A stretch of 64,000 nucleotides of DNA from an uncultured Eubacteriales bacterium (GTDB taxonomy: Bacteria > Bacillota_I > Bacilli_A > RF39 > UBA660), in assembly GCA_900319955.1 (NCBI GenBank), contig ONQM01000003.1, positions 17,654 to 81,653 of the forward strand. Reading direction: 5' to 3'. This document shows positions 4,920 through 49,292 of the stretch, piece after piece. Position numbers and translations under genes: made by a program. Position 1 is the first letter of the stretch, and every line of letters begins with the position of its first letter. Under the pieces are notes generated by a model. That model saw only the letters and a program-made list of their open reading frames with translations. It searched no databases and was not told where the DNA came from.

Positions 4920-5004
4920 AGTGTCACTACCCTTATCCTTATATAATGAATTATATCACATATAAAAAAAAATAACTATATTTTAGTTATTTTTATATTA
5001 AAAA

Positions 5005-5547
5005 TTATTTTGATTTTTTACTAGAAGTATTCTTCTTAGAAGATGTAATTTTCTTAGAATTATTTGATGTATTACTATTTTTAGCAGCTACTGTTCCTTT
5101 AGCTTTTTTTTCTGATTTACATACCAATCTTACAGACATTTTATAATCATTCTTCCCATAAGGTTTTTGTGGATAAATTGTTACCATAGTTTGTGTTTTA
5201 TCACAATCATCGCCAGTCTTAGGATCTTTAAATTCATAATCTTTAGGCTTACTTAAAGTATTTTGATATCTAGTCAAACTATCAAGAGAAACTTTAAGAC
5301 CTATACTACTAAAACTTTCCAAAAACTTTTCTCTATCATCTTTATTTTGACCTGTTGTTTTATAATAGTATGAATAAAAATCTTTACCTAAATCTTTCAA
5401 ATTATTTTCCATCTGTTTTTCTTTAGCAGATGCTGAATATTTATTATTATAAATACAAATTCCTGCAATTAAAGCAGCAATAACTATTACAACAATTATT
5501 AAAATAATCTTTTTATTTTCATTAAAAAATTTCTTTGCCTTCTCCAT
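5005..5547 (-). CDS. Hypothetical N-terminally membrane-anchored protein with a Lys/Ser-rich C-terminal tail
   Basis: 180-aa ORF. One N-terminal transmembrane helix (ILIIVVIVIAALIAGICIY) and a low-complexity KKxTSSKKSK C-terminus. No recognisable family. Confidence 0.55.
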   Translation of the reverse strand: MEKAKKFFNENKKIILIIVVIVIAALIAGICIYNNKYSASAKEKQMENNLKDLGKDFYSYYYKTTGQNKDDREKFLESFSSIGLKVSLDSLTRYQNTLSKPKDYEFKDPKTGDDCDKTQTMVTIYPQKPYGKNDYKMSVRLVCKSEKKAKGTVAAKNSNTSNNSKKITSSKKNTSSKKSK

Positions 5548-7338: not shown

Positions 7339-8127
7339 TTAAACAGCAGTAGAAAACATACCCATCATCGCAATTAAAAGTATAAGCATAACACCAATAC
7401 CAGTACAAATAAGCATTGTCATTGTTTGATTTTCCATATGTTCTAGACGCTCTTTATATTTTACTTCACGAGCCTTATTTTGAAGATTAGAAACACTTCT
7501 TGAAAACATCATTAATCTTTCTTGTTTTCTCTCTTGAGAACCAATTCCAAGTCTATATAAAAGTCTCATCATACGCATTGAATCTCTAACAGGATAATCA
7601 TTAGCAAACTCCATATAAGGATCAACTGTAGAATCACCTGCATTAATCTCTTCAACCATCTTCTTTAAACCAGGCTTAAAAACATCAGGAGCATCATCAA
7701 TTGAACGTGCAAGAGCAACTGGAACAGTATAATGCTGTATTAATATTTCTAGTCCTTTTAAGTAATAAGGAAGTAGTAAATCTATCTCATGTAAATGTTT
7801 CTTATAGAAATTTTTTAAAGACCAATAACTAGACTTAAATGTTAAGAAACCAACAACAACTGATATAACAATATTTAAAAGACTTACAGTATTCATAAAA
7901 AGTATTAAAAATACTATTCCAACTATTAAACCATTTCTAAGTCTTTGTTCAAAAAGTACATCAGGATCTACTTTATCTCCATACTTCATACGAACTAAAA
8001 AGTCATAATCACTTTCTCTTAAAAGATTAAAAAGTTTAGAATTATCTTTAGCAAACTTTTTTGTATCAATAGTTTTATTGTATACAAGAACAAATAAAAT
8101 AATTCCACCAAATATAAGGACTTCCAT
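7339..8127 (-). CDS. TadC-like inner-membrane platform protein (type II secretion system F-domain family)
   Basis: 262 aa with the TM/cytoplasmic domain/TM/TM layout typical of TadB/TadC/GspF-type platform proteins. It sits immediately downstream of a second paralogue and of a CpaF ATPase gene, and its start at 8127 overlaps the upstream stop, suggesting translational coupling. Confidence 0.55.
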   Translation of the reverse strand: MEVLIFGGIILFVLVYNKTIDTKKFAKDNSKLFNLLRESDYDFLVRMKYGDKVDPDVLFEQRLRNGLIVGIVFLILFMNTVSLLNIVISVVVGFLTFKSSYWSLKNFYKKHLHEIDLLLPYYLKGLEILIQHYTVPVALARSIDDAPDVFKPGLKKMVEEINAGDSTVDPYMEFANDYPVRDSMRMMRLLYRLGIGSQERKQERLMMFSRSVSNLQNKAREVKYKERLEHMENQTMTMLICTGIGVMLILLIAMMGMFSTAV

Positions 8128-9020
8128 TACTCAGCACCTACATTCTCGTTATAATATTTTTCTCCTTTAATGAGAAAATAACTATTAATCAAAATTATAC
8201 CATGAAGTAATAATTTAACATACCATCTATCAAGTAAAAGGATATAACTTTCCTTACCTAGTAAATACTGAACTAAAAGGACAAGTACATATAGCATAAT
8301 ACCAAATTGTAAGAACCTCTTATGGAAGTTAGCTCTATCAATTCTATCTCTGTAAACACCTTCAACAAGAGTATCGATATCAAGTTGCATCTGCTCTAGT
8401 GAGTCTGCTGAGTTTCTCGCACCTTCCTTAGTTATCTGTAAGAATAATTGATGCATATTTTTAACTATATAAAACGGATATAAATTATTAAAATATTTAA
8501 TTGATTCATCAATGGAACCATTTTTATAAGCAAGCTCTATCATTCTATCAACATCACCAGCAACTGGATCTTCAAGAAGTCCAGATTCTCTAACACCTTC
8601 CAAACTTTTAACAAAAGATTGTCGAGTTGCAAATTCCATAATAGTGTTAGATGTATATACCTGTATTTGTTCAAAGATAAACTCACTATATATTCTTTTA
8701 CTTCTCAAATAAGCAAGATAAGGAACAAGTAAAATACCAAGAAAAACATATAAAGCTGCAGTAAAGATGTTATAGAAATATAAGTATGCAATAAGTCCTG
8801 CAAAACCACCTATTAAAACACACTGTATAATATAATCTCTAGGCTTATATTCCTTACCCAACTGCTTTGTCTTCTCTCTTACTTTTTTATATGAATAAGG
8901 AGCAAACTTATCATAAATAGATGTTATTTGGTCATTAATAAATCTAGTCGCATTCTTACCACTATAACCTCGATACATCATTACAAATATAGCAATAACT
9001 AATAGTATAAATAATTCCAT
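8127..9020 (-). CDS. TadB-like inner-membrane platform protein (T2SS-F domain family)
   Basis: 297 aa with an N-terminal TM, a roughly 200-aa cytoplasmic domain and two C-terminal TM helices. It is a paralogue-like partner of the adjacent gene and sits directly downstream of the CpaF-type ATPase. Confidence 0.55.
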   Translation of the reverse strand: MELFILLVIAIFVMMYRGYSGKNATRFINDQITSIYDKFAPYSYKKVREKTKQLGKEYKPRDYIIQCVLIGGFAGLIAYLYFYNIFTAALYVFLGILLVPYLAYLRSKRIYSEFIFEQIQVYTSNTIMEFATRQSFVKSLEGVRESGLLEDPVAGDVDRMIELAYKNGSIDESIKYFNNLYPFYIVKNMHQLFLQITKEGARNSADSLEQMQLDIDTLVEGVYRDRIDRANFHKRFLQFGIMLYVLVLLVQYLLGKESYILLLDRWYVKLLLHGIILINSYFLIKGEKYYNENVGAE

Positions 9021-9025
9021 ATATC

Positions 9026-10435
9026 TTAACCTCCGTTACTCATATTTTGCATGACGTTACTTGCATCTATTTGTGGCATTACTGGAACTTGTATATTAGA
9101 AGTTTGTGCATTACTAGGAATATTTACTTGTGCAGCACTTTGAGCATCTACATTAACACTTGAATTTAATGATGAATTTTCACTTGCTAAATTAATGTTA
9201 GTTGCAGGAATATTTTCAGTACCTGCTACAGCTTTCTCTTCCATTGTACCACCATTAAGTGCATTATTTAAAGCATTACTTTTTTCTTCACTTGGACCTG
9301 TTTCAGATTCTGCTTTCTGTGAAGCTTCAGCAAATCTCTTTGATTCATTCTCTTCTATTACCTTCTCAATATCAACATCAGGTAAATGAGCAAGAATATC
9401 ATCAATATTAAGATTTTGATTTTCTAGATATTCAACCAAATGTTTAGAAGGACGAGACATAATAGGATCCATATCATAAAGTTTTCTATAAAGAGTATGA
9501 CATACAGGTTTGTTATCTTCATCAACATAAAATTCAACAACCTCATCTACTTCACGATGGAACTTACCATACTTTTTAGAATAATAAGCTTTAATATGAA
9601 CACCAATTTGTACATAACGATAAATTGTATTTAAAAACTGATCAACATCAATATCTGTCTCAAGTAATGAATAAAGACGATAAGGAATTGCACTAGCTTT
9701 ATCAGCATGGATTGTTGATAAAATATTGTGTCCTGATGAAATAGAGTTACGTACAGCAGTAACTGCCTCAGCTGAACGAACCTCAGATAGTAAAATCCAT
9801 TTTGGATTCTGTCTCATACAGGTAACTAATACATCAGAGTATGATGCAACGTTATTAGTCTTCATTGCAACAATATCTCTAGTTGGAAAAATCTTATCAA
9901 GATGAAGTTCTAGAGTATCCTCAATTGTTATTATCTTTTCAGTCTCTTTAATATGACTTGCAAGATACTTAACAAACTCAGTTTTACCAGAACCAGTTTC
10001 ACCTGAAACAATTATGTTACAGTGTCCTTCAACACATTTCATTAATAAATCATGAATATCAGCAGTAAAATAATCTTCTGCAAGTAATTTTTCTTTCTTT
10101 AACCTTATCTTAGCAGGTGTTTTACGAATAACACATGCAATACCATTAGTAGCAATAGAAGGATGTACAAAGTTAAGACGTAACTCACTACTTTCTGCAT
10201 CTAGAAAAGGCTTAGCATTATTAAAGGTTGTACCCATAACATTAGAGCACTGAAAAGCAAGCTTTTCCATAAACTCTGGAGTACAACCTGGAACTTCTAC
10301 ACGAATGGAACCTTGAGATAAAGAACGAATCCAGATTTGTCCGCCATTACAATACGAGATATCGGTTATATCATCATTATCAAGTAGTGGTCTTAAAGGG
10401 CCAAAATCTAACTTATCAAATATATTTTCATTCAT
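9026..10435 (-). CDS. CpaF/TadA-family (VirB11-superfamily) secretion ATPase with a roughly 100-aa Ser/Asn/Ala/Gln-rich C-terminal tail
   Basis: Walker A motif GETGSGKT, Asp box ITIEDTLEL, Walker B-like LSEVRSAEA and His box STIHA, in the order characteristic of CpaF/TadA/VirB11 hexameric ATPases. The C-terminal low-complexity extension is ...ASQKAESETGPSEEKSNALNNALNGG...SSLNSSVNVDAQSAAQVNIPSNAQTSNIQ. Confidence 0.85.
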   Translation of the reverse strand: MNENIFDKLDFGPLRPLLDNDDITDISYCNGGQIWIRSLSQGSIRVEVPGCTPEFMEKLAFQCSNVMGTTFNNAKPFLDAESSELRLNFVHPSIATNGIACVIRKTPAKIRLKKEKLLAEDYFTADIHDLLMKCVEGHCNIIVSGETGSGKTEFVKYLASHIKETEKIITIEDTLELHLDKIFPTRDIVAMKTNNVASYSDVLVTCMRQNPKWILLSEVRSAEAVTAVRNSISSGHNILSTIHADKASAIPYRLYSLLETDIDVDQFLNTIYRYVQIGVHIKAYYSKKYGKFHREVDEVVEFYVDEDNKPVCHTLYRKLYDMDPIMSRPSKHLVEYLENQNLNIDDILAHLPDVDIEKVIEENESKRFAEASQKAESETGPSEEKSNALNNALNGGTMEEKAVAGTENIPATNINLASENSSLNSSVNVDAQSAAQVNIPSNAQTSNIQVPVMPQIDASNVMQNMSNGG

Positions 10436-10473
10436 TATCTCACTTCCACTCTTTTATTCTTTTATTCTTAATC

Positions 10474-11280
10474 TTATTGCATTGAATCTGTCCAATAAGT
10501 GACATTATTGATAAAGTCTTTAATATCTTTAGATGAAAGCTTTAAATCACCTGGATTAGACTTCTTACTTTCTGCAGTAGGAACTGGAGAAAGTTCAGTA
10601 CTATAGTTTCTTAAGTAATCTGCTTTCTTAAGTAAGATATAATATTCTTCTGGTACAGCAAATATTAACTGAGATGGTACTGCATTTTCATTTGTATTAG
10701 AGAATACATTCTTACCACTACTATCTCTAACAGCAAGTACTTTAACATTCTCAAGTAACTTACCAACCATAACTTTACCATTATTAGGATCATTTTCATC
10801 AGTAGATCCATAAGTAGCCTTAAAGTAAAGATCAATATAATTACCAGGGTATATTGAATTACTATAAGTAGTTTCCATATTAACACTCATATAATATAGA
10901 ACATATCCTTTTGGATAATCAAGAATAATACTATCAGGTAATTGATCTTTTTCAACAACACATCTAGTATAGAAAAGACTTCCAGAAGGAATCAAACAAT
11001 CTGCACCAGAGTATTTATCAATAACACTCTGTTTAGATCTATAAATATCACCTTTTATCATAGAAGGAGGAACTTGAGCTTCCCCAACCATGTCTTCTGT
11101 TATTTGAGTACTTGGATTAATTTCCTGAAGAGCATAAGGAACACTAATTGGATTAGTAGCTTGTTTAACTCTCCAGTTATAACCTATATATAATACAAGA
11201 ATAGCAAGTATTACACCAAGAACTGTAACAGTATTCTTATTAGTTAAAAATTTCTTTAAGCCAACCGTTATATTATTCAT
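10474..11280 (-). CDS. CpaB-like Flp/Tad assembly protein (N-terminal TM anchor plus SAF-like domain)
   Basis: 268 aa. TM helix VTVLGVILAILVLYIGY followed by a SAF-like segment (...PYALQEINPSTQITEDMV...), resembling the CpaB/RcpC N-terminus. It is positioned directly upstream of the CpaF-type ATPase, as in tad loci. Confidence 0.5.
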   Translation of the reverse strand: MNNITVGLKKFLTNKNTVTVLGVILAILVLYIGYNWRVKQATNPISVPYALQEINPSTQITEDMVGEAQVPPSMIKGDIYRSKQSVIDKYSGADCLIPSGSLFYTRCVVEKDQLPDSIILDYPKGYVLYYMSVNMETTYSNSIYPGNYIDLYFKATYGSTDENDPNNGKVMVGKLLENVKVLAVRDSSGKNVFSNTNENAVPSQLIFAVPEEYYILLKKADYLRNYSTELSPVPTAESKKSNPGDLKLSSKDIKDFINNVTYWTDSMQ

Positions 11281-11290
11281 TTTATTCCTC

Positions 11291-11794
11291 CTATTTACTT
11301 GGTAAATTATTTAAACCATTATAACTTGTAATCTTTAAATCTTTAATATAATCCTTATTTTTAGTTGTAACAGCTAAATTGTCTTTATTCTTAGTTTCAA
11401 TAATCATATCTGCAGTAGTTGTAATATCAACTTTATTTTCCCCACCTAATGCTTTTACAACAACAGTATTCTTAGGAGAAATTACTCTTATACTAACCTT
11501 AGGAGGTGTTTCATTAATATCATAAACTTTAATGTCATAATCACGAGTTCCCTCAACATTATTAGCAAAACGTTTTACAAAACTTTCCATAAACTTCTCT
11601 TTATCCATTCTGAGTAAGCCACTCTCTCTAAAGAAAGTATTATCAACTGCATCATTCATAGCAGCTTCTGTTGTCTCTTTTAATAGATAATAATCAAGTT
11701 CAGCACCAGTTTGTTGTCCACTAATAACACTAATTGAATAGAAACCTAATATTGCCATTAATATAATTCCAATTGTTAAAAATGCCTTATTCAC
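11291..11794 (-). CDS. Hypothetical small membrane-anchored protein (candidate pseudopilin-like or accessory component)
   Basis: 167 aa. N-terminal hydrophobic segment AFLTIGIILMAILGFYSISVISGQ, then a soluble domain. No TadE/Flp consensus was recognised. Confidence 0.5.
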   Translation of the reverse strand: MNKAFLTIGIILMAILGFYSISVISGQQTGAELDYYLLKETTEAAMNDAVDNTFFRESGLLRMDKEKFMESFVKRFANNVEGTRDYDIKVYDINETPPKVSIRVISPKNTVVVKALGGENKVDITTTADMIIETKNKDNLAVTTKNKDYIKDLKITSYNGLNNLPSK

Positions 11795-11811
11795 TATTAA
11801 TCACACTCCTA

Positions 11812-14800
11812 TTAACTAGCACTCTTTATAAAATTATTAAGAGTAGTCTTAGTATCCTCATCTATATCATAACTTGTTAAAGGATCACATGCTGTTCCAT
11901 TAAGAATATTATTACATTTTAATGCTTCTTCACTAGGCTTTCTAAGTAAAGAACCATAGCCTTCTGTAGTATTCTTACTACCCTCTGGTGAAGTTCTTAA
12001 AAATTTACTTACATAATACTTAATAGTTGGAATATCACTGCTTGGAGCATCATAGCCACCTTTTTCAGATGTATCTAATTTTGTAGCATCAGTATAATAT
12101 CCTGCATTCTTATATGCATCCCAATAATCTTCATTATTAATTGTCTTATAAGTACCATTTTTAAAATAAGTATAATCTTTATCACCATTTGTAATTTTAC
12201 GAATATTTTCTATATTCTTTTTATTTAAATAAATTTCATAATCAAGTTCATTATCATTGTTATAAATACTATCACCTTGAGATTTAATCTTAGCTGCTAA
12301 AAGTGTTGGTGTAATAGGATAATTAGCTATAGATAAATTAGTAGCATTAACACTCCAGTTAAAACCAGGTTGTCTGGAAGCAGAAGCACTTGTTTTTGCA
12401 TCTGCAACCTTCTTTACATTACCTGCTTGATACTCTACAGTACTTGTTGAAACTTTAGTAGATTTAGAAACCTTATTAGATGTTGGTTTAGTTCCACTTG
12501 ATGTAAACATATTTTGACTGTCATATGATCTAGCAACATAGTTACCCATTCTAGTTGTACATGTTTTATCAGTCTTATTATCACATGATGAATCAGGAAT
12601 TGATGAACATCCAGTACCAGTACAAGATACAGTCTTACAATTTGGATCCTTTGTTGTATCACAACTTGAAGTTTTTGTAGGATTTGGACAATTCTTAGTA
12701 TTAATTGGTTCAGGATCATCATCAAGTGCATAATAACATCCAGTCTTAAACTTCCAATCAAACATACCAAAGCTTTCTACCTTACTTATAATGTTATAAA
12801 CATCTGGTGTTGATTTACTAACTTTATCAAGTGTACAACCATTCTTAGCTCTTAGATATTCATCGAAGAATTTAACATTAACTTTCTTAGCAGTTGATGG
12901 TGTACAATACTTACCACTAACTTTCTTATACCATTGAGATTCTGCTGACATATCATCATAAACTACATAACCATGTTTATTTTCAATCCAAGCACCAGGG
13001 AATGTAATTATACCATGATATTGTGTAATTAATGCTTTAGTATTATTTTTCCAAGTACAATCAATCTTATTTCCATTTGCATCAGTATAAGAATCAGTCT
13101 TACCATCACAACCATCTACAACCTTACCAGCACACTGTCCAGCATTTAATTCAACAACTGTTGGGAATGAATGTGAAGCATTATTTAATTCTTTCTTCTT
13201 CTGCTCTTCCCCTTTTGCACTTGGGAACTTTCTACATAATTCTTGATCATAATTGCTTCCCTCACAAGATTGCTTATCAGTACTTGTATTATCAGTATCA
13301 TCATTTGCAGTCATAGTATAAGTGATACTATTGTCTTTACAATCATTTGCAGTATTTATACAATCAGCAATTTTACCAGTAAATGAAGATAAATCTTTTT
13401 CAAATTGTTTTTCAATCTCACCGGCAGTATCATAACAAACTGAAGTTGATGAAGATTTAGACCATTTGCAATTCCAAGTACAATTTTCATTTCTTCTAAA
13501 TCCAACACCATCATTATGTTCATCTTTAGTAGTATTTGGATAATATGAAGCACCTTTTTCATACATACCTAAGAAGCATTTATTCCAACCAAGTTTCTTA
13601 CATTCACTATAATTTGTTTCAGGAGAACATGTTGTGCTACCAACTAGCCAACTATTCTTATAATGATAATCTGTACAAACAGTTAAAGCTGCCATAGATT
13701 TATTCTTAAAATAATACTTAGCATATTTAGTCCAATAGCAATCAGAACTTGTTGCACTATCAGAGCCTTGAACATGTGAGTTAACATAATCATAAACTGC
13801 ATCAATATATCCATCAGGAACTTTTCCAGGAGTCGTACCACTTGCTAAAGTACCAGGGAAGTTTTTACATATTTCAGATTCTGTAAATTTAGAACCCTTA
13901 ACAGTATCGGTTTTCTTTAACTTAATTACATCACTAGATGTTGATTCTTTACCTTCTGTTGTTAATACATTATTATTTGAATTTTGTGCTAAATTATTTG
14001 ATACTTTTGATGTACTTGATACTTTTGTACCATATGCTTTATTAAAACATTTATTTATACATTTATCAGAATATTTTCCACCATCACAATCCAAAACGCA
14101 TAAATCAAATTCATCATCTGGTCCAGCTGATGCTGTATGTAAATCAGGTTTATTAGAATTTCCACCACCACATATAGGTGTATCTTGACAAGAAGCATTT
14201 TCATATTTTCTAAAATCAGGAATCTTATCAAAATCAGGTTTTACCACACATGATGTAGTACTCTTAATTTCTACTTTATATGTAAAACAATTACCAGGAG
14301 TTACAGCTTGAGGTGCATCAAATGCTATTGCAAGTTGTTCACGACAAGTATAACTGCAAACATTTTGAGCAACAGTTTTCTTAGAAGTTAATCCACTTTG
14401 ATTGAATAAAAGCATATCAGCTTTTACATCTTCAGCCTTATCATAATATAAATATTTATAAGTTTTTTCATTATCAAGTCTATTATCACAAGTTAACATA
14501 TCTTTTTTATTAGATTCTGCATTTTCATAACCAGTTTTATTAGTAGCTTGGTCTTTTAATTTGTCTTTACTGTCACGACCCTTTTTACTTAAGTCAGGAT
14601 CATCGACCTTTATCCATTTTTTATCTGATCCTTGAGTTAAATCAGGTAGTTTTGGATTATCAGGATCAATTCCTAAATCTCTCATTTTAGCTCTTTCAGA
14701 AATATAGTCTTCAAAAGTTTTTTCAAATGATGCCATATCTTCCTTTATCTTAGTAAGAATTTCATCTGAAATATTATAATCAACATAAGCATCTTTTGCA

Positions 14801-15969
14801 TCGTATCCTACAACCTTATCTCCACTAACAGAAACAGCTAAATTACCATTAGAATATCGAGGGAAACAAGGACCCATTGTTTTATTAACAAGAGCATCAG
14901 TATACTCATTCCATTCAGAATCAGATGCATGCTTATAGTATGATTTTACTGCCCATTCACATGCAGAGCCAGAACTAAAATCAGCAGATGTAGTTCTGTT
15001 TGTATTAGATGCAGCTATATTATTCAATATATTTGCTTCATCCTGTAAATCGCCACCATATGTTGTGTAATATGATTTTATTGTCATCTTCTTTTTGTTT
15101 TTCTTAGCATAAACTATGAATATTGCATATTCTCCACTATTTTCCACTTTAAAATCATATGTTGTATGCTTTGATGGTGTATAAGTTATAACTTTATCAT
15201 GTGGACCATTTGCATGATTTGCATACCACCAGTTTGTATATGCTTCTGCGCAAGTCTTATTGTTTACTCCTTTTTTGTTGCACGCATCTTTTTTCTTATA
15301 ATGTTTTACTTTTGCATCATATTCATCTTTATCAAAATCAACTGCTGCAATTTTTATTTTTTTATCTGTTGCATCCCCATTAGATATAAAAGTAACTGTT
15401 GAAGGGTCTGATATATGAAATTGGACTTGAAATCCAAATAATGATACATCAACTGGTTCTGGGTCAGTTAATGAACCTACATCAACTGAATCAGGATCAT
15501 CAACATCCTCATCTACATCAGGTTCTTCAGCTGTAGTAGTTGTAGTACTTTCATTTGAAGTTGTGCTTGAACTATTACTTGATGGTGTATATGAATTATT
15601 GCTAGTAGAACTGCTGCTTGAACTTGAGTTTGAATTAGAACTGTTAGAGCTTGCTTTAGCAACACATTCAGCATGTTTAGAATCAATTACATGTCTAGCA
15701 AAACCATCATTACATTTACAATTTGTACCTTTACTAGAAGCCCAAGAAGCATTTGCTTCGCAAGAACAAGTACTTCTACTAACTTTCTTACAATCACCAT
15801 TTTTCTTTTTGGCACCTGTACAATGACTTAATGTACCGCATCCATCAGCTGCATATACATTACTTTTGTTATTAAAATTTACATCGATTGTAAATCCAAA
15901 TAACATTACAATGGCTAGTAAAAATATTCCAACCCTCTTTTTATAACTATTTTTAGACATCTTCGCCAT
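11812..15969 (-). CDS. Giant cysteine-rich secreted protein (1385 aa) with a Ser/Thr-rich linker, an acidic region and many CxxC/C-rich modules
   Basis: Signal peptide MAKMSKNSYKKRVGIFLLAIVMLFGFTIDVNFNNKSNVYA-ADGCG. Poly-Ser/Thr linker SSNSSNSNSSSSSSSTSNNSYTPSSNSSSTTSNESTTTTTAEEPDVDEDVDDPD. Dozens of Cys are spread through the protein (e.g. TSSCDTTKDPNCKTVSCTGTGCSSIPDSSCDNKTDKTCT). There is no LPXTG-type C-terminus. The start overlaps the upstream sortase gene by 17 nt. Confidence 0.8.
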   Translation of the reverse strand: MAKMSKNSYKKRVGIFLLAIVMLFGFTIDVNFNNKSNVYAADGCGTLSHCTGAKKKNGDCKKVSRSTCSCEANASWASSKGTNCKCNDGFARHVIDSKHAECVAKASSNSSNSNSSSSSSSTSNNSYTPSSNSSSTTSNESTTTTTAEEPDVDEDVDDPDSVDVGSLTDPEPVDVSLFGFQVQFHISDPSTVTFISNGDATDKKIKIAAVDFDKDEYDAKVKHYKKKDACNKKGVNNKTCAEAYTNWWYANHANGPHDKVITYTPSKHTTYDFKVENSGEYAIFIVYAKKNKKKMTIKSYYTTYGGDLQDEANILNNIAASNTNRTTSADFSSGSACEWAVKSYYKHASDSEWNEYTDALVNKTMGPCFPRYSNGNLAVSVSGDKVVGYDAKDAYVDYNISDEILTKIKEDMASFEKTFEDYISERAKMRDLGIDPDNPKLPDLTQGSDKKWIKVDDPDLSKKGRDSKDKLKDQATNKTGYENAESNKKDMLTCDNRLDNEKTYKYLYYDKAEDVKADMLLFNQSGLTSKKTVAQNVCSYTCREQLAIAFDAPQAVTPGNCFTYKVEIKSTTSCVVKPDFDKIPDFRKYENASCQDTPICGGGNSNKPDLHTASAGPDDEFDLCVLDCDGGKYSDKCINKCFNKAYGTKVSSTSKVSNNLAQNSNNNVLTTEGKESTSSDVIKLKKTDTVKGSKFTESEICKNFPGTLASGTTPGKVPDGYIDAVYDYVNSHVQGSDSATSSDCYWTKYAKYYFKNKSMAALTVCTDYHYKNSWLVGSTTCSPETNYSECKKLGWNKCFLGMYEKGASYYPNTTKDEHNDGVGFRRNENCTWNCKWSKSSSTSVCYDTAGEIEKQFEKDLSSFTGKIADCINTANDCKDNSITYTMTANDDTDNTSTDKQSCEGSNYDQELCRKFPSAKGEEQKKKELNNASHSFPTVVELNAGQCAGKVVDGCDGKTDSYTDANGNKIDCTWKNNTKALITQYHGIITFPGAWIENKHGYVVYDDMSAESQWYKKVSGKYCTPSTAKKVNVKFFDEYLRAKNGCTLDKVSKSTPDVYNIISKVESFGMFDWKFKTGCYYALDDDPEPINTKNCPNPTKTSSCDTTKDPNCKTVSCTGTGCSSIPDSSCDNKTDKTCTTRMGNYVARSYDSQNMFTSSGTKPTSNKVSKSTKVSTSTVEYQAGNVKKVADAKTSASASRQPGFNWSVNATNLSIANYPITPTLLAAKIKSQGDSIYNNDNELDYEIYLNKKNIENIRKITNGDKDYTYFKNGTYKTINNEDYWDAYKNAGYYTDATKLDTSEKGGYDAPSSDIPTIKYYVSKFLRTSPEGSKNTTEGYGSLLRKPSEEALKCNNILNGTACDPLTSYDIDEDTKTTLNNFIKSAS

Positions 15970-16756
15970 CTCCTTCTAATATTTTTTTGATTTTTTTATA
16001 GTCCTTCTTTTCATGCATATCATAATTATACCCTTTATTACTATTTTTTACAAGTTTTCCATCAACTTTTAAATAATAATGATAAGGACCTAATAATCTC
16101 GTACACGTATATAAAGAAATTAACTTATCTTCTTTATTTACATCAATATCATATTTATAAATACTTTCTTTTAATGAGTCTTTTATAAATTTTTTCTTAA
16201 TTGTTTTTGTAATGCTATTAGGAAAATAATAAACTTCATTATCATTTATTATTGAAACACCATATATTTGATATAAATAATTAACATTGTTAAATGTAAA
16301 TTGTATATACTTATTTTTATCAGCAAAATCACTATAAACAAAAGCCATTAATGGTTCAAATCTTTGCAATTTCTTATCATTTACCTTTGGATGTGGTCCA
16401 ACATTAATATAGTTGTGACCAAAAATTGGAATAAAATCTGAAAGTTTTTTTTCAGGTTTATTAATCCAAGCATAATTATCAAGTGATGGATATGTTTCAG
16501 ATGAAACTGGCATATCAATGTTAGTACCTTGTACCTTAATCCATCCAATTACCTTATCTTTTTTACTTTTCTTTTTCAACTTCTCAACATTTTTTGTTCT
16601 ATCTTCTACCTTATATATAGGGAAAAATTTATTACTGATTTTCTCTCTATTTATAACAAGAATTATAGCAAACAAAATGAGAAGTAATAAAAGAATTATA
16701 ACATGTTTGTTTATCATCTTTGATGCTTTTTTTTCTTTTCTTATATTTCTTTTCAT
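15953..16756 (-). CDS. Class B sortase-like transpeptidase (SrtB family)
   Basis: N-terminal TM anchor. KVIGWIKVQGTNIDMPV matches the SrtB N-terminal signature (compare S. aureus SrtB IVGWIKLSGTSLNYPV and C. difficile SrtB IGWLQVQDTNINYPV). The His motif is IFGHNY and the Cys motif is KLISLYTCT (TLxTC-type). The position aligned to the catalytic Arg is uncertain and may be His. Confidence 0.7.
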   Translation of the reverse strand: MKRNIRKEKKASKMINKHVIILLLLLILFAIILVINREKISNKFFPIYKVEDRTKNVEKLKKKSKKDKVIGWIKVQGTNIDMPVSSETYPSLDNYAWINKPEKKLSDFIPIFGHNYINVGPHPKVNDKKLQRFEPLMAFVYSDFADKNKYIQFTFNNVNYLYQIYGVSIINDNEVYYFPNSITKTIKKKFIKDSLKESIYKYDIDVNKEDKLISLYTCTRLLGPYHYYLKVDGKLVKNSNKGYNYDMHEKKDYKKIKKILEGDGEDV

Positions 16757-16775
16757 ATTACTCCTCTATCCTATA

Positions 16776-18527
16776 CTAATAACTTATTGTATATGGGTCT
16801 TGCTTAGTTCCAGAACCACTAACAACTACTGCATCATTTCTTAAATAACCTGCAATCTTTGTTGAAGATGCATAAGCAAAATTTGCAATTGGAAAATAAA
16901 TTGTACCATTTCCACTACCATAATATTGCTTATATTTTTTACTATACTCTATATACCAAGTTTGACCATTAATATTTGAGTAAAAATCAAATAAAGATGG
17001 CAACGATATTTTAATATTATATGTTTTTGATTCATGTTTTCCATTGTATGTTGGATATGAACTATATATATTTGCAGAAACTTTATGTTTTTTAAATATA
17101 TTAGTACTAATTTGTCTAGAAATATTATTTTCTACTGAATAACCAATATTATTATTTTTATTTGGGTTGTATTTACTATTATTAACTATGTTATCATCAA
17201 ACTCATAAGAATAATTTGATATAACTTTAACATTTTTTGAATCATTAGAAGAAACTCTAAATAATTGTCCTCTATATGAAATATACTCTCCTACTCTTAG
17301 TTTACTAACTTTTGTTCCACCTTTTAATTCCTTGAAGTTATCTATTACATATGGATTCTCATAAGATCCAGTTCCTTTTTTAATTAAAGTACTCTTTTTA
17401 ATAACAAAAACTGGCCTAACACTAAATATATAGTTCTTATTATAGTCTAAATATTTACTAGACTGACCATTAAATGAATATCTAGTTGTCCATGCCTCTT
17501 TACTATTTTTACTATTATACGTCCAACTAATAGTATCAGGATAAAGAAAACTTCCCCCCTCCTTTGTTAAGCTACTATTATACTCATTTATTGACAAAAG
17601 TCCAGAATTTCCAATATTTTTCTTTGAATTACATGTTGTTATTTTGTCTTTATCTTTAGATGAAACGGTATCAGAACAGAAATTATAGTTTGTAACAACA
17701 TACTTCTTACTATCATTAGTTAAAGTGTCATAAAAATCATTCAAGTAATCTTTTATTGAATTAAAATCAATATGACCTACATCTTCATTTGCAACTATCT
17801 TTGTATTACCATCACTATCAAGTCCTACTATTCTATAAAGTTGTCCACTAAACATTATGTAATTATCTCCATCACCAACATAAACATTACTCTTACCAGT
17901 AGCTTTCTCAACTGTCTTAGAAAGATTTTGTGTAACCTTAACAGTTCTAGTTACTTCAGTTTTATTCTCTAAAGTATCAACAGCACTATAAGTAATAGTA
18001 TATACTCCATTCTTACTTGTATCAACATCACTTGATACAGCAACATCTTTTGCATTTATTTTACCATCATTATTATCTATAACACTCTTAACACCAGGAT
18101 CTTTAAATTTAGAATATCTTTCTACATTAATAGTATCATTACCATTTAATGTAATAACAGGTCCAGTATGATCTATATTAGAAGAAAATATACCACATTT
18201 TAAATAAGTATAATATAAATACTGTCCTTCTTTTCTTTTTACTTTAACAAAACTATGTCTAGTATCACAAGTATCATGATTATAAGCAGTTCTTAAATCA
18301 GGAATATACTTTTTATCTAAAAGTTCAACACCATTAATAGTTCTAATTTCTCCTTCTTCTGGTAAAAGATTTTTATTTATTTCAAAATATCTTTTAGCAC
18401 CTTTAAGTAAAGTACTTTCATTTTCATTAAACTTAATTAATGGAAATATAAATAATAAATAAATAATTAGTAAAACTCCCGCAATTACAAGTATTTTAGT
18501 AACTGACTTTTTAGTATCATTTTTCAT
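16776..18527 (-). CDS. N-terminally anchored surface protein with a bacterial Ig-like (DUF5011-like) domain and GxGxxxxPY(V/T)I motifs
   Basis: 583 aa. Type-II-style N-terminal TM (ILVIAGVLLIIYLLFIFPLI). HTGPVITLNGNDTINVERYSKFKDPGVKSVIDNNDGKI matches the DUF5011 Ig-like pattern. GTGSYENPYVIDNF and GSGTKQDPYTISY occur in the C-terminal half. No C-terminal sorting signal. Confidence 0.65.
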   Translation of the reverse strand: MKNDTKKSVTKILVIAGVLLIIYLLFIFPLIKFNENESTLLKGAKRYFEINKNLLPEEGEIRTINGVELLDKKYIPDLRTAYNHDTCDTRHSFVKVKRKEGQYLYYTYLKCGIFSSNIDHTGPVITLNGNDTINVERYSKFKDPGVKSVIDNNDGKINAKDVAVSSDVDTSKNGVYTITYSAVDTLENKTEVTRTVKVTQNLSKTVEKATGKSNVYVGDGDNYIMFSGQLYRIVGLDSDGNTKIVANEDVGHIDFNSIKDYLNDFYDTLTNDSKKYVVTNYNFCSDTVSSKDKDKITTCNSKKNIGNSGLLSINEYNSSLTKEGGSFLYPDTISWTYNSKNSKEAWTTRYSFNGQSSKYLDYNKNYIFSVRPVFVIKKSTLIKKGTGSYENPYVIDNFKELKGGTKVSKLRVGEYISYRGQLFRVSSNDSKNVKVISNYSYEFDDNIVNNSKYNPNKNNNIGYSVENNISRQISTNIFKKHKVSANIYSSYPTYNGKHESKTYNIKISLPSLFDFYSNINGQTWYIEYSKKYKQYYGSGNGTIYFPIANFAYASSTKIAGYLRNDAVVVSGSGTKQDPYTISY

Positions 18528-18545
18528 AATCTCTAACCTTCCTTT

Positions 18546-20102
18546 TTATTTTATATCTAATATGTACCTTTTATTTCTTATTGTACATATTATATCTAAA
18601 TCATTACTTGATGCCTCTTTATTTGTTAATTTAATAAATACTTCTTTACCATCATTATGAGTTGAAACTGCATTTTTTACATCATCATATTTATATTTTT
18701 TACTCTTTCCTACTCTGTATTTAATTTTACCATACTCATTTAAAAAGTCAATAAAATCTTCCCCTTCAAAGTCACTACCAGCAAAAGTAATTTTGAGTAT
18801 TTTGCCTTTATTATTTCTTACACTATCTGTATTTACCTTACAGTCATCAGCAGCTTCACAGTAGTATCTTCTATAAGTAAAATTATCACCAATCTCTGCA
18901 GTTAATGGAGTTAACTCTTTATAACTTCCATCCATATATTCAAATTTAATTTTTTTATTTAAATTATAAGTACCAATATCTTTGATATTGCTTATATCAG
19001 TAATATTTAATTTTATTTTTCTTAATATATTTAGATTATCTAGCTCCTGATAATATAAAACAAACTTATTATTCTTAAGCTTCTCATCTTCCTTAAATAT
19101 TAAATAAACTTTCTTGCCTTGTCCACTATATAAGTTGATGTTATCATCAACCCCACTACCAATATCTTTAAATGAATCATTATAAAATGTATTATAAATT
19201 TTTATAGATGATTTATTAACTAAATGATATCTATCAAAATTAACTGTAACTCTTCTATTAGATCTATTAATAACATTAACACCAATTATTACAAACTTAT
19301 TTCCCTTTTCTATAACATTACCTGCATAATCTTTATCAGTAACATAAGCATCAGTAATAGTAATATTATAAATACCAGCATTAAAGCTTTTACCTTGCTT
19401 ATAACTTCTATGTGTTATAAAGAAATTAAATATATTAAATATAAGTATTATTGAAAGTCCAGTAAGAGCTATATTACAAACAAGCTTATGTTCAAAGTAA
19501 AAATACTTAATATTTCTTAAAACTCTATTAAATACCCTTCTAATACTTCTTTTATCAAAGTCAAAAGATACTTCAAACTCTGCTCTATCATCTTCAGAAA
19601 GCTCTAAGAATTCTTTATCTTTTTCGAATCCAAACTTCTTAATATCTGCTCCAAGTATTCTAGCAAGTAAAAGAAACATAATAGGATACATTAGGAAATG
19701 ACTTATATTAATAATATCTCTATAAGGAAGAATACCTGAAAGTTCTGAAAGAGGAGTATAATCACTAAAGTAATTTGAAGCTCCATTAACGCCAACAAGA
19801 ACTAAAACAAATATAGCAAAATAAACAAGATAAATCTTCCAAGGTTTTTTCTTTCTAACAAGAAGTACCATTAAAGCAAGACATGCAAGAATAACAAATA
19901 TAACTGCTAAATAGAAAAGTACTCCAACATGACTTGAAAAGGACTCTACACTAGCATCATAAGACTCAAATCTAATAAACTCCTTAACAAAATTTAATAT
20001 ATTAAGAAGTTTAAAATAAATGAAAACTACACATGCTAAAATAACTATATGTATTTTCTTAAAGTTTTTAATTAAAAAGGCATAAGGTTTTCTAAATATC
20101 AT
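18546..20102 (-). CDS. Polytopic membrane protein (4-5 N-terminal TM helices) with a large C-terminal extracytoplasmic domain; first gene of the operon
   Basis: 518-aa ORF, hydrophobic N-terminal third and a soluble C-terminal domain. It is preceded by a 190-bp intergenic region. Confidence 0.6.
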   Translation of the reverse strand: MIFRKPYAFLIKNFKKIHIVILACVVFIYFKLLNILNFVKEFIRFESYDASVESFSSHVGVLFYLAVIFVILACLALMVLLVRKKKPWKIYLVYFAIFVLVLVGVNGASNYFSDYTPLSELSGILPYRDIINISHFLMYPIMFLLLARILGADIKKFGFEKDKEFLELSEDDRAEFEVSFDFDKRSIRRVFNRVLRNIKYFYFEHKLVCNIALTGLSIILIFNIFNFFITHRSYKQGKSFNAGIYNITITDAYVTDKDYAGNVIEKGNKFVIIGVNVINRSNRRVTVNFDRYHLVNKSSIKIYNTFYNDSFKDIGSGVDDNINLYSGQGKKVYLIFKEDEKLKNNKFVLYYQELDNLNILRKIKLNITDISNIKDIGTYNLNKKIKFEYMDGSYKELTPLTAEIGDNFTYRRYYCEAADDCKVNTDSVRNNKGKILKITFAGSDFEGEDFIDFLNEYGKIKYRVGKSKKYKYDDVKNAVSTHNDGKEVFIKLTNKEASSNDLDIICTIRNKRYILDIK

Positions 20103-20244
20103 AATTACTATTCCCCTTTACTCTAAGATAATTATAAACTTTTAAAGCAAATTTGACAATAAGAAAGTAATAGGTTATATCATTAAGCAGAAAGAGGTGT
20201 CCCGCATCAAACATTTTTTACTGGTGGGAGGCTCCCCTTTTTCT

Positions 20245-20274
20245 CTTGATTAAATAATTATATATATGTTATAA
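20245..20274 (+). promoter_or_regulatory. Sigma-A-like promoter for the thioredoxin-like lipoprotein gene
   Basis: TTGATT (20245-20250), a 17-18-nt spacer, then TATAAT-like ttataat (20268-20274). GAGG lies 8 nt upstream of the ATG at 20296. Confidence 0.4.
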
Positions 20275-20295
20275 TTTTTTCTGGAATGAGGTTAG

Positions 20296-20703
20296 ATGAT
20301 GAAAAAAGTAGTAAAAGTATTATTAATAGTTATTTCTTTAATGTTACTAACTGGTTGTAAAAATAATATGGAAAGAATTACATATAGTGATTTAGAAGAT
20401 AAAATAAAAGATAAAGATACATTTATAATGGAAGTATCACAAGATGGTTGTAGTCATTGTGAAGAATATAAACCAATTATAGATGAAGTATTAAACGATA
20501 ATAATTTAACAGCATATAATTTAAATATAACTTATCTAAGTGAACAAGATTATAATAAATTTGATAAAAAATATACATTTGAAGGAACACCAACAACTAT
20601 GTTCTTTAAAGATGGTAAAGAAGTTTTATCAAGTAGACTTGTAGGTACAGTTAGTAAAACAAAATTAAAGAAAGAATTAAAAAGATTAGGTTACATCAAA
20701 TAA
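20296..20703 (+). CDS. Secreted thioredoxin-fold lipoprotein (CxxC thiol-disulfide oxidoreductase-like)
   Basis: Lipobox LLTGC. CxxC motif CSHC. cis-Pro-type motif EGTPTTMFF. 135 aa. Confidence 0.75.
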   Translation: MMKKVVKVLLIVISLMLLTGCKNNMERITYSDLEDKIKDKDTFIMEVSQDGCSHCEEYKPIIDEVLNDNNLTAYNLNITYLSEQDYNKFDKKYTFEGTPTTMFFKDGKEVLSSRLVGTVSKTKLKKELKRLGYIK

Positions 20704-22973: not shown

Positions 22974-22989
22974 ATTTTTCCTCCACAAT

Positions 22990-49290: not shown

Positions 49291-49292
49291 AA

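Follow-up and report, generated by a model that had tools for sequence, protein, structure and literature searches.

Gene content of the locus

Nine closely packed genes run along the minus strand from position 20102 down to 7339 of the window (the whole stretch of DNA analysed, 64 kb), and a gene for a thioredoxin-fold lipoprotein is positioned divergently to them. All of these ORFs were recovered as given in the initial annotation. Protein assignments in the list below derive from Pfam and NCBIfam profile searches with family cut-offs, profile–profile comparison with hhalign and shuffled controls.

20296..20703, plus strand: thioredoxin-fold lipoprotein, PedC/BrcD-like, lipobox LTGC, active site CSHC (PF00085, 36 bits, above cut-off)
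20131..20159, minus strand: sigma-70-like promoter match, TTGTCA-17-TATAAT (11/12 consensus matches, best in the region)
18546..20102, minus strand: gene 1, polytopic membrane protein, 518 aa, whose extracellular domain is DUF4352-like (23.6 bits, just below the cut-off of 25.9)
16776..18527, minus strand: gene 2, N-terminally anchored protein, 583 aa, with a Bact_surface_Ig-like domain (formerly DUF5011) at residues 125–198 (63 bits, above the Pfam cut-off)
15953..16756, minus strand: gene 3, membrane-anchored cysteine transpeptidase resembling class B sortases, 267 aa (S. aureus SrtB 1ng5, E = 6.6e-8 over ~200 aa)
11812..15969, minus strand: gene 4, giant secreted Cys-rich protein, 1385 aa (signal peptide; 51 Cys, 3.7 %; conserved C-terminal CNNxxNxxxxC loop)
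11291..11794, minus strand: gene 5, small N-terminally anchored DUF5411 protein (152 bits, above the Pfam cut-off)
10474..11280, minus strand: gene 6, CpaB/RcpC homologue, 268 aa (RcpC 30.8 bits, above the cut-off of 28.8)
9026..10435, minus strand: gene 7, secretion ATPase of the CpaF/VirB11 family, 469 aa, C-terminal tail of low complexity (T2SSE 100 bits, above the Pfam cut-off)
8127..9020, minus strand: gene 8, TadB-like (T2SSF-superfamily) platform protein, 297 aa (by profile–profile comparison only)
7339..8127, minus strand: gene 9, second platform protein, 262 aa, TadC-like by position and paralogy (by profile–profile comparison only)
7228..7245, minus strand: intrinsic-terminator-like hairpin and T-run, 95 nt past the last gene
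5930..6989, minus strand: degenerate transposase of the ISL3 family, located at the break point (7348 is where homology to the closest other species stops)

Intergenic gaps within the nine-gene block are no longer than 38 nt; elsewhere the genes overlap, by 17 nt for the sortase-like and giant genes and by 1 nt for the genes of the 297-aa and 262-aa proteins. The promoter-like site (20159–20131) lies upstream of gene 1, inside the 193-bp divergent intergenic region, and is a consensus match of a kind that occurs at chance frequency in the AT-rich DNA here. The hairpin (7245–7228) is the sole minus-strand terminator-like hairpin near the block, none being found inside it, and it is kept in strains with differing ISL3 copies.

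The Tad-like module recognised in the initial annotation was upheld by profile comparison as a CpaB homologue, a CpaF/VirB11-family ATPase and a TadB/TadC-like platform pair. The gene 6 family aligns with genuine CpaB of S. meliloti and Ralstonia (hhalign: Prob 95.4 %, P = 1.9e-8). The best NCBIfam matches of gene 7 are, in order, VirB11, TadA-type and FlaI, all below cut-off, and its nearest relatives are the CpaF/VirB11 proteins encoded on conjugative plasmids of Gram-positive bacteria (1e-34 to 1e-23), CpaF and VirB11 of proteobacteria being more distant. Neither the 297-aa nor the 262-aa protein has a Pfam or NCBIfam match. Gene 8 aligned with genuine TadB (hhalign: 85.7–91.2 %, P = 5.5e-6 to 1e-6, up to 236 columns), while 12 shuffled controls for this comparison gave P values of 0.15–0.9. 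No direct match of gene 9 to TadB or TadC was found; a profile of the 262-aa protein with p39 (the pLS20 proteins are discussed below) matched a profile of the 297-aa protein with p38 (94.9 %, P = 4.5e-8), indicating that the 262-aa protein is a paralogue of the 297-aa protein.

Among the surface genes, gene 1 has an orthologue (29–49 % identity) at the equivalent place in more than 20 loci, and the position of gene 2 is conserved in relatives (31–55 % identity). The giant product of gene 4 returned no Pfam, PDB or NCBIfam match and no recognisable adhesin domain; neither an LPXTG motif nor a C-terminal membrane anchor was found, and its structure predictions were of low confidence (pLDDT 55 and 39). 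Overall identity among its orthologues is only 5–29 %, yet Cys is present in at least 70 % of 28 of them at 24 columns. The divergent lipoprotein scored below cut-off against TIGR01295 (38.7 bits), and an orthologue or PedC-like gene adjoins the cluster in L008–L013, L094, L097, L116, L140, L144 and L145. The association with a thioredoxin-fold neighbour, pointed out in the initial annotation, proved general: such a gene, or a PedC-like one, lies directly or no more than two genes upstream in every architecture inspected. Together with the 24 conserved Cys columns, this conserved neighbour suggests a disulfide logic.

Gene 3 resembles SrtB of S. aureus and C. difficile in being membrane-anchored, in aligning with SrtB structures over ~200 residues and in retaining the N-terminal (V/I)GW(I/V)xVxGTNIDYPV motif and the catalytic His and Cys, which are invariant in the family alignment (GHN and TCTR, respectively). 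However, its profile scores are below cut-off (Pfam Sortase, 16.4 versus 26.6; NCBIfam SrtB TIGR03064, 51 versus 154 bits, far under), and, unlike SrtB and the sortase-assembled pili of Gram-positive bacteria, the family lacks the canonical Arg at Cys+10, having instead an invariant R at Cys+2 and K at Cys+12. It also differs from the sortase-assembled pili in that no canonical substrate (LPXTG-/NPQTN-type with a C-terminal anchor) is encoded among the proteins of the block or cluster.

Orthologous clusters in relatives and the break in this species

Orthologous clusters in relatives, from which a cluster of ~23 genes was deduced, begin with the nine genes in the order described above (DUF4352 membrane protein, Ig-like, sortase-like, giant Cys-rich, DUF5411, CpaB, CpaF/VirB11-family ATPase, TadB-like and TadC-like). 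They continue with a 49–55-aa prepilin-like protein, two paralogous ~150-aa minor-pilin-like proteins, a ~330-aa protein and VirB2/T4SS_pilin-like proteins, and end with a VirB6-like protein (TrbL_4), a ~105-aa protein, a TraC-like protein, VirB4, a wall hydrolase (SpoIID/CHAP/NlpC), a ~265-aa protein and VirD4. The cluster VirD4 belongs to the CD1115 family (312 bits, cut-off 250), and VirB4, TrbL_4, TraC-like and hydrolase domains were also found in these clusters. The block runs on into T4SS genes in L008–L013 and L094, and likewise in ~25 metagenome loci reached via the sortase-like gene. The prepilin-like proteins share an N-terminal motif, M[KR][ED][AS]xG[GE], followed by a hydrophobic helix; they have no detectable similarity to Flp, TadE or pLS20 p40/p41, and the Flp G/XXXXEY motif is missing. 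No A24 peptidase was seen in any cluster examined.

The linkage of the Tad-like module to the sortase-like, giant Cys-rich and Ig-like anchored genes, first described in the initial annotation, is stable: more than 25 divergent loci share this gene order, although identity of the sortase-like protein is just 32–49 %, and this recurrence argues that the block is more than a product of chance. The accompanying claim, that the arrangement is self-contained and lies outside described systems, did not hold, as in relatives the block continues unbroken into a T4SS (VirB2-like, VirB6-like, VirB4, hydrolase and VirD4). The nine genes are probably the promoter-proximal, contact- and pilus-like half of a chromosomal T4SS cluster of ~23 genes, cut by an IS in this species, the T4SS link being drawn wholly from the orthologous loci.

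The break in the cluster falls directly behind the TadC-like gene and is occupied by ISL3 copies. Homology ends exactly with the stop codon of this 262-aa gene (at 7348 in the comparison with L094), and different ISL3 copies occupy the site in different strains. A tblastn search with the cluster proteins found the first nine genes alone in the window, and no genes for a pilin, prepilin peptidase, VirB4, VirB6 or VirD4 are present within its 64 kb. In the closest other species, whose ATPase is 92 % identical, the block leads straight into pilin-like and T4SS genes. The IS neighbour, previously taken as a sign of an island, is a secondary insertion that truncated the cluster.

It seems quite improbable that the nine genes form a self-sufficient new machine, as first envisaged, in which a Tad-like motor exports or displays the giant Cys-rich protein and the sortase anchors it independently of any T4SS. 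The block does have its own promoter-like site and terminator-like hairpin, stands apart from any T4SS gene in this species and is intact in at least six assemblies; moreover, L100-type loci keep the surface module (sortase-like, giant, DUF5411, DUF4352, Ig-like and a second sortase) apart from the ATPase. However, the block holds no pilin-like gene, its break point coincides with IS insertions, its ATPase and platform proteins are homologous to conjugation-operon genes, and in over 25 relatives, the closest other species among them, it continues directly into pilin-like and T4SS genes. The L100-type layout, considered with L088, L089 and L092, in which the channel half has no Tad-like module within 6–7 kb upstream, indicates that the surface and channel halves are separable.

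The missing downstream pilin-like and channel genes, at a site that is an IS hot spot with degenerate ISL3 copies, could also signify a decaying remnant, the system having been inactivated by the IS-mediated break, with the nine genes now turning into pseudogenes. We regard this as very improbable, since the nine proteins remain 49–92 % identical to their orthologues, with the conservation rank order of intact clusters; at least six independent assemblies also carry all nine ORFs at full length and free of frameshifts, although these assemblies are ~99 % identical to each other, so that intactness is weak evidence either way. The nine genes of this truncated T4SS cluster probably still function with the back half located elsewhere in the genome, or else the break is recent.

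Affinities with known secretion systems

The closest match is to the conjugation operon of B. subtilis pLS20 (genes 34–54), Enterococcus pZB18 and a Paraclostridium plasmid, with homology shown for four collinear proteins. Sequence comparison showed the DUF5411/ATPase/platform module to be homologous to and collinear with pLS20 genes 36–39: the ATPase matches p37 (1e-47), the 297-aa protein the p38 family (hhalign: 95.2 %), the 262-aa protein the p39 family (hhalign: 87.5 %, P = 3.6e-6) and DUF5411, more weakly, p36 (hhalign: 53 %, P = 1.4e-4; best phmmer matches pZB18/pLS20 p36). The initial annotation had anticipated an ordinary pilus locus should the ATPase and platform proteins fall in a conjugative T4SS or known pilus clade with an annotated pilin and prepilin peptidase nearby; the former do group with pLS20-family conjugation genes 37 and 38/39, but no annotated pilin or prepilin peptidase is present.

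Both systems encode, in collinear order, a large surface adhesin (presumed for the cluster here), p36/DUF5411, VirB11-like p37, the two polytopic proteins p38/p39 and small hydrophobic proteins, then a VirB6-like protein, a VirB3-like small protein, VirB4 and a wall hydrolase; their VirD4 proteins belong to the same CD1115 family. The giant protein occupies the slot of the Tie/SpaA-type adhesin in pLS20-family operons and, by analogy, is presumed to be an adhesin or contact protein. The adhesin has no sorting signal in either system, and the mode of cell attachment of Tie is not established (PMC8092201). Unlike the pLS20 family, the cluster here is chromosomal and lineage-wide, not plasmid-borne, with no relaxase recognised; VirD4 is positioned at the cluster end, whereas it precedes VirB6 in pLS20; and a CpaB homologue is present, for which pLS20-family loci L001–L003 gave no match. 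Further differences are four extra upstream genes (DUF4352 membrane protein, Ig-like, sortase-like and Cys-rich giant), the giant standing in place of a thioester/CnaB adhesin, the thioredoxin-like partner and the conserved prepilin-like N-terminal motif of the small proteins.

The cluster shares components with the Tad/Flp (type IVc) pili of, for example, Caulobacter (Cpa), Aggregatibacter (Tad) and Bifidobacterium breve (Tad): besides a CpaB homologue it has an ATPase of the CpaF family and two paralogous single-domain T2SSF platform proteins (TadB/TadC), after which relatives encode three proteins with pilin-like N-termini, one of them small and two larger. In contrast to these pili, it lacks the Flp motif, a TadV/A24 peptidase and TadZ/CpaE (a 337-aa protein tested as TadZ/CpaE was negative). 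Its platform proteins are missed by Pfam T2SSF, its ATPase is closer to VirB11-like ATPases of Gram-positive plasmids than to CpaF, and the module forms part of a T4SS cluster.

The chromosomal or ICE-borne T4SS known from Mollicutes-related Bacilli (Mycoplasma ICEs) come from a related host lineage and likewise have VirB4 and VirD4 with no recognised relaxase; the VirB6-like protein weakly matches the ICE membrane-protein families MMCAP2_0566 and Mbov_0396 (22 and 17 bits, below cut-off). Mycoplasma ICEs are mobile, with a DDE recombinase, and are not known to carry a Tad-like module or sortase-like gene.

Distribution and a putative mode of action

The cluster is chromosomal and conserved across hundreds of uncultured gut bacteria, in a lineage including order RF39, to which genus CAG-877 has been assigned (PMC8035907). 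Its VirB4 was found in at least 535 GTDB species genomes, nearly all carriers being labelled uncultured Bacilli, Tenericutes or Mycoplasma and including complete chromosomes of 1.3–1.5 Mb. At its 3′ border the cluster meets housekeeping genes, as seen in two complete chromosomes, and genes for a SpoU methylase and a U32 peptidase, together with the thioredoxin-like gene, form the 5′ border. This one-lineage distribution, with core chromosome making up the remainder of the window, does not support the accessory or island character proposed initially.

We also think it unlikely that the cluster in its entirety constitutes a mobile integrative conjugative element, with a piece of it in the window, as opposed to a core domesticated system. 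Its nearest characterised homologues are on conjugative plasmids, VirD4 is present and the flanking genes vary between lineages. Nevertheless, no relaxase or integrase domain was found among the scanned cluster proteins, the loci inspected showed no gene for a relaxase, an integrase or replication either within the cluster or next to it, and its borders in complete chromosomes are housekeeping genes. Furthermore, VirB4 identities are graded (75–100 % across the 80 loci kept) within a single lineage, rather than representing near-identical copies in unrelated hosts. From the distribution only, we infer vertical inheritance of this chromosomal cluster.

In a possible mode of action, the giant protein would be exported by Sec and then folded oxidatively with help from the neighbouring thioredoxin-fold lipoprotein. 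The sortase-like enzyme, having retained its catalytic His and Cys, may process or cross-link an extracellular component, though the components have no classical sorting signal. The ATPase, the TadB/TadC-like platform and CpaB would constitute a Tad-like motor that assembles the small prepilin-like proteins, by polymerisation, into a short fibre spanning the wall. Such a fibre could present or anchor the adhesin and draw a partner cell into contact, whereupon the VirB4/VirB6/VirD4 channel would pass a substrate, either DNA or protein.

The nine-gene block and its Tad-like core

Nine consecutive minus-strand ORFs occupy positions 20102 to 7339, matching the coordinates proposed in the initial annotation exactly, with gaps of no more than 38 nt and two overlaps, in a window of low GC content (about 25–30 %). 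Their products, together with the flanking features, are listed here.

The nine-gene block and its flanks
20296–20703, plus strand (divergent): thioredoxin-fold lipoprotein, 135 aa; Thioredoxin, 36 bits, with weaker PedC/BrcD similarity; lipobox LTGC, active site CSHC
Minus strand, gene 1: 518-aa polytopic protein; DUF4352, slightly below the cut-off
Minus strand, gene 2: 583-aa protein; Bact_surface_Ig-like (formerly DUF5011), 63 bits
Minus strand, gene 3: 267-aa protein; class B sortase signal far below cut-off (Pfam, 16 bits; TIGR03064, 51 bits, cut-off 154)
Minus strand, gene 4: 1385-aa giant Cys-rich protein; zero matches in Pfam and NCBIfam family scans
Minus strand, gene 5: 167-aa protein; DUF5411, 152 bits
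Minus strand, gene 6: CpaB-like 268-aa protein; RcpC/CpaB (PF16976), 30.8 bits (cut-off 28.8)
9026–10435, minus strand, gene 7: ATPase; T2SSE, 100 bits
Minus strand, gene 8: 297-aa protein; zero matches in Pfam and NCBIfam family scans
Minus strand, gene 9: 262-aa protein; zero matches in Pfam and NCBIfam family scans
5930–6989, minus strand: degenerate ISL3 transposase, directly downstream of gene 9
5005–5547, minus strand: 180-aa membrane protein, preceding the giant surface-protein gene
1–4955, minus strand: giant surface-protein gene running off the left window end; >1651 aa here, 4647–7095 aa in other assemblies

The best promoter-like site of the region (20159–20131) lies directly upstream of gene 1, promoter-like sites as a class occurring at chance frequency in the window DNA. 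No terminator-like hairpin was found within the nine-gene block, and the sole minus-strand hairpin of this kind near it is positioned 95 nt 3′ of gene 9 (7245–7228). A PHROGs scan of the window proteins was uninformative.

The ATPase certainly belongs to the T2SSE superfamily, with CpaF as a candidate subfamily. Among NCBIfam models, VirB11 ranked first (118 bits), ahead of the TadA-type (104 bits) and FlaI (92 bits) models, each far under its cut-off, while tblastn ranked 'CpaF/VirB11' proteins of Gram-positive plasmids first, then CpaF, then VirB11. The initial annotation had described a Tad-like secretion core around this ATPase. That description holds because of profile comparisons with genuine CpaB and TadB proteins, taken from the tad loci of Ralstonia and Sinorhizobium, though the platform proteins are invisible to Pfam: T2SSF matched neither the 297-aa nor the 262-aa protein, nor any of ten full-length distant relatives of the former. 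An exhaustive HMMER search with the 297-aa profile returned 278 matches, fragments for the most part, and profiles of both families found no match among PDB sequences. An AlphaFold2 model of the 297-aa protein (pLDDT 55, pTM 0.27; 51 homologues, each at least 69 % identical) was too poor for a fold search.

The link to TadB appeared only in profile–profile comparison (hhalign). The 297-aa family matched genuine TadB with a probability of 85.7 % (P = 5.5e-6), rising to 91.2 % (P = 1e-6, 236 columns) when the family of pLS20 gene product p38 was added. In the controls, 12 column-shuffled versions gave P = 0.15–0.9, a reversed version P = 0.3 and three other families (VirB2-like, CpaB-like and DUF5411) P = 0.15–0.39, and P fell to 0.0014 for the paralogous p39 family of pLS20. 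Compared directly with TadB/TadC, the 262-aa family gave no significant match. Combined with p39, it matched the combined 297-aa and p38 profile (94.9 %, P = 4.5e-8), which identifies it as a paralogue of the 297-aa family. The pair of single-domain T2SSF platform proteins typical of Tad/Flp systems (TadB and TadC) is thus present by profile–profile comparison, and so is CpaB/RcpC, the family matching CpaB of S. meliloti and Ralstonia at 95.4 % (P = 1.9e-8, hhalign). The window encodes no Flp pilin, no TadE/TadF pseudopilin and no prepilin-like gene of the M[KR][ED][AS]xG[GE] type described below, and Pfam domains of an A24 prepilin peptidase (TadV) or a ParA-like protein were absent from the cluster proteins scanned.

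The sortase-like protein aligns with S. aureus SrtB over ~200 residues (E = 6.6e-8). Five orthologues, 43–56 % identical to it, retain an invariant GHN His and TC Cys; the canonical Arg position (Cys+10) is occupied by Y, S, D or I, with invariant R and K residues at +2 and +12, respectively. No protein was found that joins an LPXTG/NPxTx motif to a hydrophobic stretch and a charged tail, as a classical sortase substrate would: the giant protein has no membrane anchor, and the Ig-like protein ends in ...DPYTISY.

The giant protein and 40 orthologues possess a signal peptide and, at the C-terminus, a conserved CNNxxNxxxxC loop and no membrane anchor. Cys is conserved at 24 alignment columns (present in 70 % or more of 28 orthologues) at a residue identity of just 5–29 %. 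This pattern argues for a disulfide-stabilised extracellular fold, for which the thioredoxin-fold product of the conserved neighbouring gene would be a plausible partner. An AlphaFold2 model of residues 190–1385, built with five homologues from a word-indexed search, was unusable (pLDDT 39).

The complete cluster in relatives and its interruption by ISL3 elements

Homologues of the ATPase fall in hundreds of clusters (~88 % identity over the core). They originate in metagenomes of gut and rumen, where the contigs reach 1.3 Mb, and one bears the name Clostridium sp. CAG:417. Their contexts show the same nine genes in the same order, followed by further genes.

Gene order after the nine genes in relatives
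First: 49–55-aa protein; two ~150-aa paralogues; ~330-aa protein
Then: ~110-aa and 160–290-aa proteins with VirB2/T4SS_pilin-like C-termini; TrbL_4 (VirB6-like); ~105-aa protein
Last: TraC-like protein; VirB4-type ATPase; large SpoIID/CHAP/NlpC wall hydrolase; ~265-aa protein; VirD4

In two loci (L014 and L065), the closing gene matches the CD1115-family VirD4 model with 312.8 bits (cut-off 250). With the sortase-like protein as query, a metagenome scan gave 58 loci; nearly all of the ~25 that were long enough to judge have the full order, at a sortase-like identity of just 32–49 %. The identities are graded among the cluster proteins, as would be expected of a conserved motor with a fast-evolving exposed tip.

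Conservation of cluster proteins (amino acid identity)
VirB4: 75–100 %
ATPase: 63–91 %
297-aa and 262-aa proteins: 51–86 %
CpaB: 52–80 %
DUF5411: 44–72 %
Sortase-like, Ig-like and DUF4352 proteins: about 30–55 %
Giant protein: 24–44 %

The first three of the additional genes, directly 3′ of the 262-aa gene (49–55 aa and two of ~150 aa), encode proteins that begin with M[KR][ED][AS]xG[GE] followed by a hydrophobic helix. This N-terminus resembles a class III (prepilin-type) signal, and a tentative assignment as pilins may be made. The Flp motif G/XXXXEY is missing from them, and profile comparison revealed no similarity to Flp, TadE or pLS20 p40/p41. The 337-aa protein found further downstream was considered as a TadZ/CpaE candidate and ruled out (0.6 % against CpaE).

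When genomes were scanned with VirB4, it turned up in at least 535 GTDB species representatives. The labels of nearly all of these are uncultured Bacilli, Tenericutes or Mycoplasma sp. CAG:877, the exceptions being a few oddly labelled bins; the genus CAG-877 belongs to order RF39 (PMC8035907). The carriers include two complete circular chromosomes (1.31 and 1.52 Mb), and in both VirD4 closes the cluster and housekeeping genes come next: isochorismatase and NAPRTase genes in one, genes for a nuclease and a DnaJ-like protein and holA in the other. On the 5′ side, relatives carry a SpoU methylase, a U32 peptidase and a thioredoxin/PedC-like gene. The cluster proteins that were scanned contained no relaxase or integrase domain, and neither cluster border showed one in those relatives that were inspected. 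From its distribution alone, we infer that the cluster is vertically inherited.

When the proteins of a complete relative were searched against the window (tblastn), just the first nine genes and the thioredoxin gene were recovered, plus one weak VirB2-like paralogue (48158–48571). VirB4, the VirB6-like protein, the wall hydrolase and VirD4, which in relatives lie directly downstream, are absent from the 64-kb window. In the closest other species, whose ATPase is 92 % identical, the cluster is contiguous, and its homology to the window ends at 7348, the end of the 262-aa gene. The same break is present in six assemblies of the window's species (L004 and L154–L159 are the same-site loci) with different ISL3 copies at the site (5930–6989, minus strand, here); these range from the degenerate window copy to an intact 467-aa transposase, one copy lies in the opposite orientation and one is just 79 % identical. 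Different copies at the same break point to an IS hot spot as the place where the cluster was interrupted. All nine genes are still full length.

The arrangement described in the initial annotation is real. The reading of the block as a free-standing operon joining a Tad-like motor to a sortase is not borne out, as the nine genes of relatives run on into a type IV secretion system (T4SS) and the IS break made the fragment. For annotation, the seemingly novel 'Tad plus sortase' operon is a fragment left by an IS break. The block represents the front half, cut short by an IS, of a T4SS cluster of the pLS20/CD1115 type that is chromosomal and found across the lineage.

In other lineages, the two halves were also seen apart. 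At L100-type loci (L100, 9998–18384; also L101 and L103), GreA is followed by sortase-like, giant, DUF5411, DUF4352 and Ig-like genes and then by a second sortase (Pfam, 40 bits, passing the cut-off); no ATPase or platform gene adjoins this surface module, which is evidently able to exist as a separate unit. Three loci (L088, L089 and L092) carry the VirB4 half without a Tad-like module within 6–7 kb upstream. In some clusters, back-half proteins of ~400 aa (L093, 5475–6686; L065, 5917–7158) weakly resemble the 583-aa Ig-like protein (24 %, tblastn), and a DUF6273 protein is encoded 3′ of VirD4 in L014 (17319–18542); all of these are possible paralogues of the anchored Ig-like protein.

Relationship to pLS20-type conjugation systems and a possible mechanism

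Among 72,556 plasmids, the nearest ATPases belong to the 'CpaF/VirB11 family' of Gram-positive conjugative plasmids (E = 1e-34 to 1e-23), namely the pLS20 family, Enterococcus pZB18, a Paraclostridium plasmid and plasmids of Bacillus anthracis, Listeria and the B. cereus group; proteobacterial CpaF (1e-12 to 1e-13) and VirB11 (1e-7 to 1e-12) rank behind them. The order on those plasmids is reminiscent of the present cluster: a big adhesin, small proteins, the ATPase, two membrane proteins, small hydrophobic proteins, VirD4, a VirB6-like protein, DUF5592 and VirB4. In pLS20, gene 37 is a putative VirB11 and genes 36 and 38–41 are listed as unknown (PMC8557374). The window ATPase matches p37 at 1e-47, and hhalign paired the 297-aa family with p38 (probability 95.2 %, P = 2.6e-8), the 262-aa family with p39 (87.5 %, P = 3.6e-6) and DUF5411 with p36 (53 %, P = 1.4e-4), so that a VirB11-like ATPase flanked by p36, p38 and p39 homologues, a feature of the pLS20 family, is found in the window. 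By these homologies, the Tad-like module is to be regarded as an integral part of a conjugation-type T4SS family. On pLS20-type plasmids (L003, 12995–14532; also L001 and L002), the 'unknown' genes 38 and 39 join the TadB-like family by profile comparison, so a Tad-like platform may lie beside the VirB11-like ATPase in conjugation operons of the pLS20 family. No description of such a reading of genes 38/39 was found in the literature searched, nor did the literature on RF39 and pLS20 yield a description of this T4SS cluster.

Several features of the cluster are unusual. A Tad-like module that includes CpaB is embedded in it, its sortase-like enzyme lacks a classical substrate, its giant protein is rich in disulfides and accompanied by a thioredoxin-like partner, and no relaxase was recognised. 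The pLS20 adhesin Tie has no sorting signal and its mode of attachment to the cell is unexplained (PMC8092201); the giant protein resembles it in occupying the same operon position and in lacking a sorting signal. From the observed gene content, gene order, homologies and break, we infer the following mechanism. By analogy with Tie, the giant Cys-rich protein would be a contact adhesin, with the thioredoxin-like lipoprotein aiding its folding. CpaB, the ATPase and the two platform proteins would polymerise the prepilin-like proteins into a short wall-crossing fibre that carries or holds the adhesin, and the sortase-like enzyme would process or cross-link some extracellular component. The VirB4/VirB6/VirD4 channel would next transfer DNA or protein.

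A more far-reaching reading, which we consider possible and on balance rather unlikely, is that RF39 and its relatives, a large order of uncultured gut bacteria with small genomes, hold a hybrid nanomachine in their core genome. A T4SS with VirD4 and no relaxase would here incorporate a fibre motor of Tad-like type, a sortase-like enzyme and a giant contact protein that is disulfide-rich and evolves fast. It would serve not selfish conjugation but, as a domesticated contact-dependent device on which these metabolically dependent organisms rely, the exchange of chromosomal DNA or proteins. Were this the case, pLS20-type systems would, by the homology of p38/p39, assemble an unrecognised Tad-like fibre.

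Gram-positive conjugative elements are stated to form no pili (PMC8557374). The genes next to the pLS20 adhesin prove to encode a CpaF/VirB11-family ATPase and a TadB/TadC-like pair, to which RF39-type clusters add a CpaB homologue and prepilin-like proteins, and display of the adhesin by a Tad-like fibre becomes a testable idea. For gut ecology, a T4SS in at least 535 species of a reduced-genome gut lineage is a candidate key to how these uncultured organisms deal with their neighbours.

Chromosomal surroundings of the block

The giant surface-protein gene at the left window end has a GC content of 35–40 %, clearly above the rest of the window (~25 %), and its product displays cadherin-like and ALK_LTK_GRD domains, with a weak dockerin match in one case. 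The remainder of the window is ordinary chromosome, encoding glmS with its ribozyme, DnaE, a UvrD-like helicase, an RNB-domain protein, a DnaI/IstB-like ATPase, ComEC, ComEA, a Mur ligase, YceG, RuvX, a rhomboid protease and YqeH.

The genes for ComEC (Competence and Lactamase_B domains) and ComEA (SLBB and HHH_3) lie at 44023–46732 on the minus strand, and a DNA-uptake channel distinct from the T4SS is likely in this organism. Should a Com-type prepilin peptidase be encoded in another part of the genome, it could process the prepilin-like proteins of the cluster.

The weak VirB2-like paralogue is a 137-aa ORF (48158–48571, minus strand) with a weak T4SS_pilin (PF18895) match and 35 % identity to the 110-aa VirB2-like protein of the cluster. 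It adjoins genes for an O-methyltransferase and YceG (48580–50965), and the syntenic position in L100 (3342–4142) encodes a T4SS_pilin and NlpC/P60 fusion. Apparently, a VirB2-like gene is conserved here on the chromosome, outside the cluster.

Finally, the glmS ribozyme (Rfam RF00234, 60.7 bits) was located at 22992–23133 on the minus strand, upstream of glmS. The 623-aa ORF called for glmS (21198–23069) overlaps it, and the true start of glmS is therefore probably further downstream than the ORF call.
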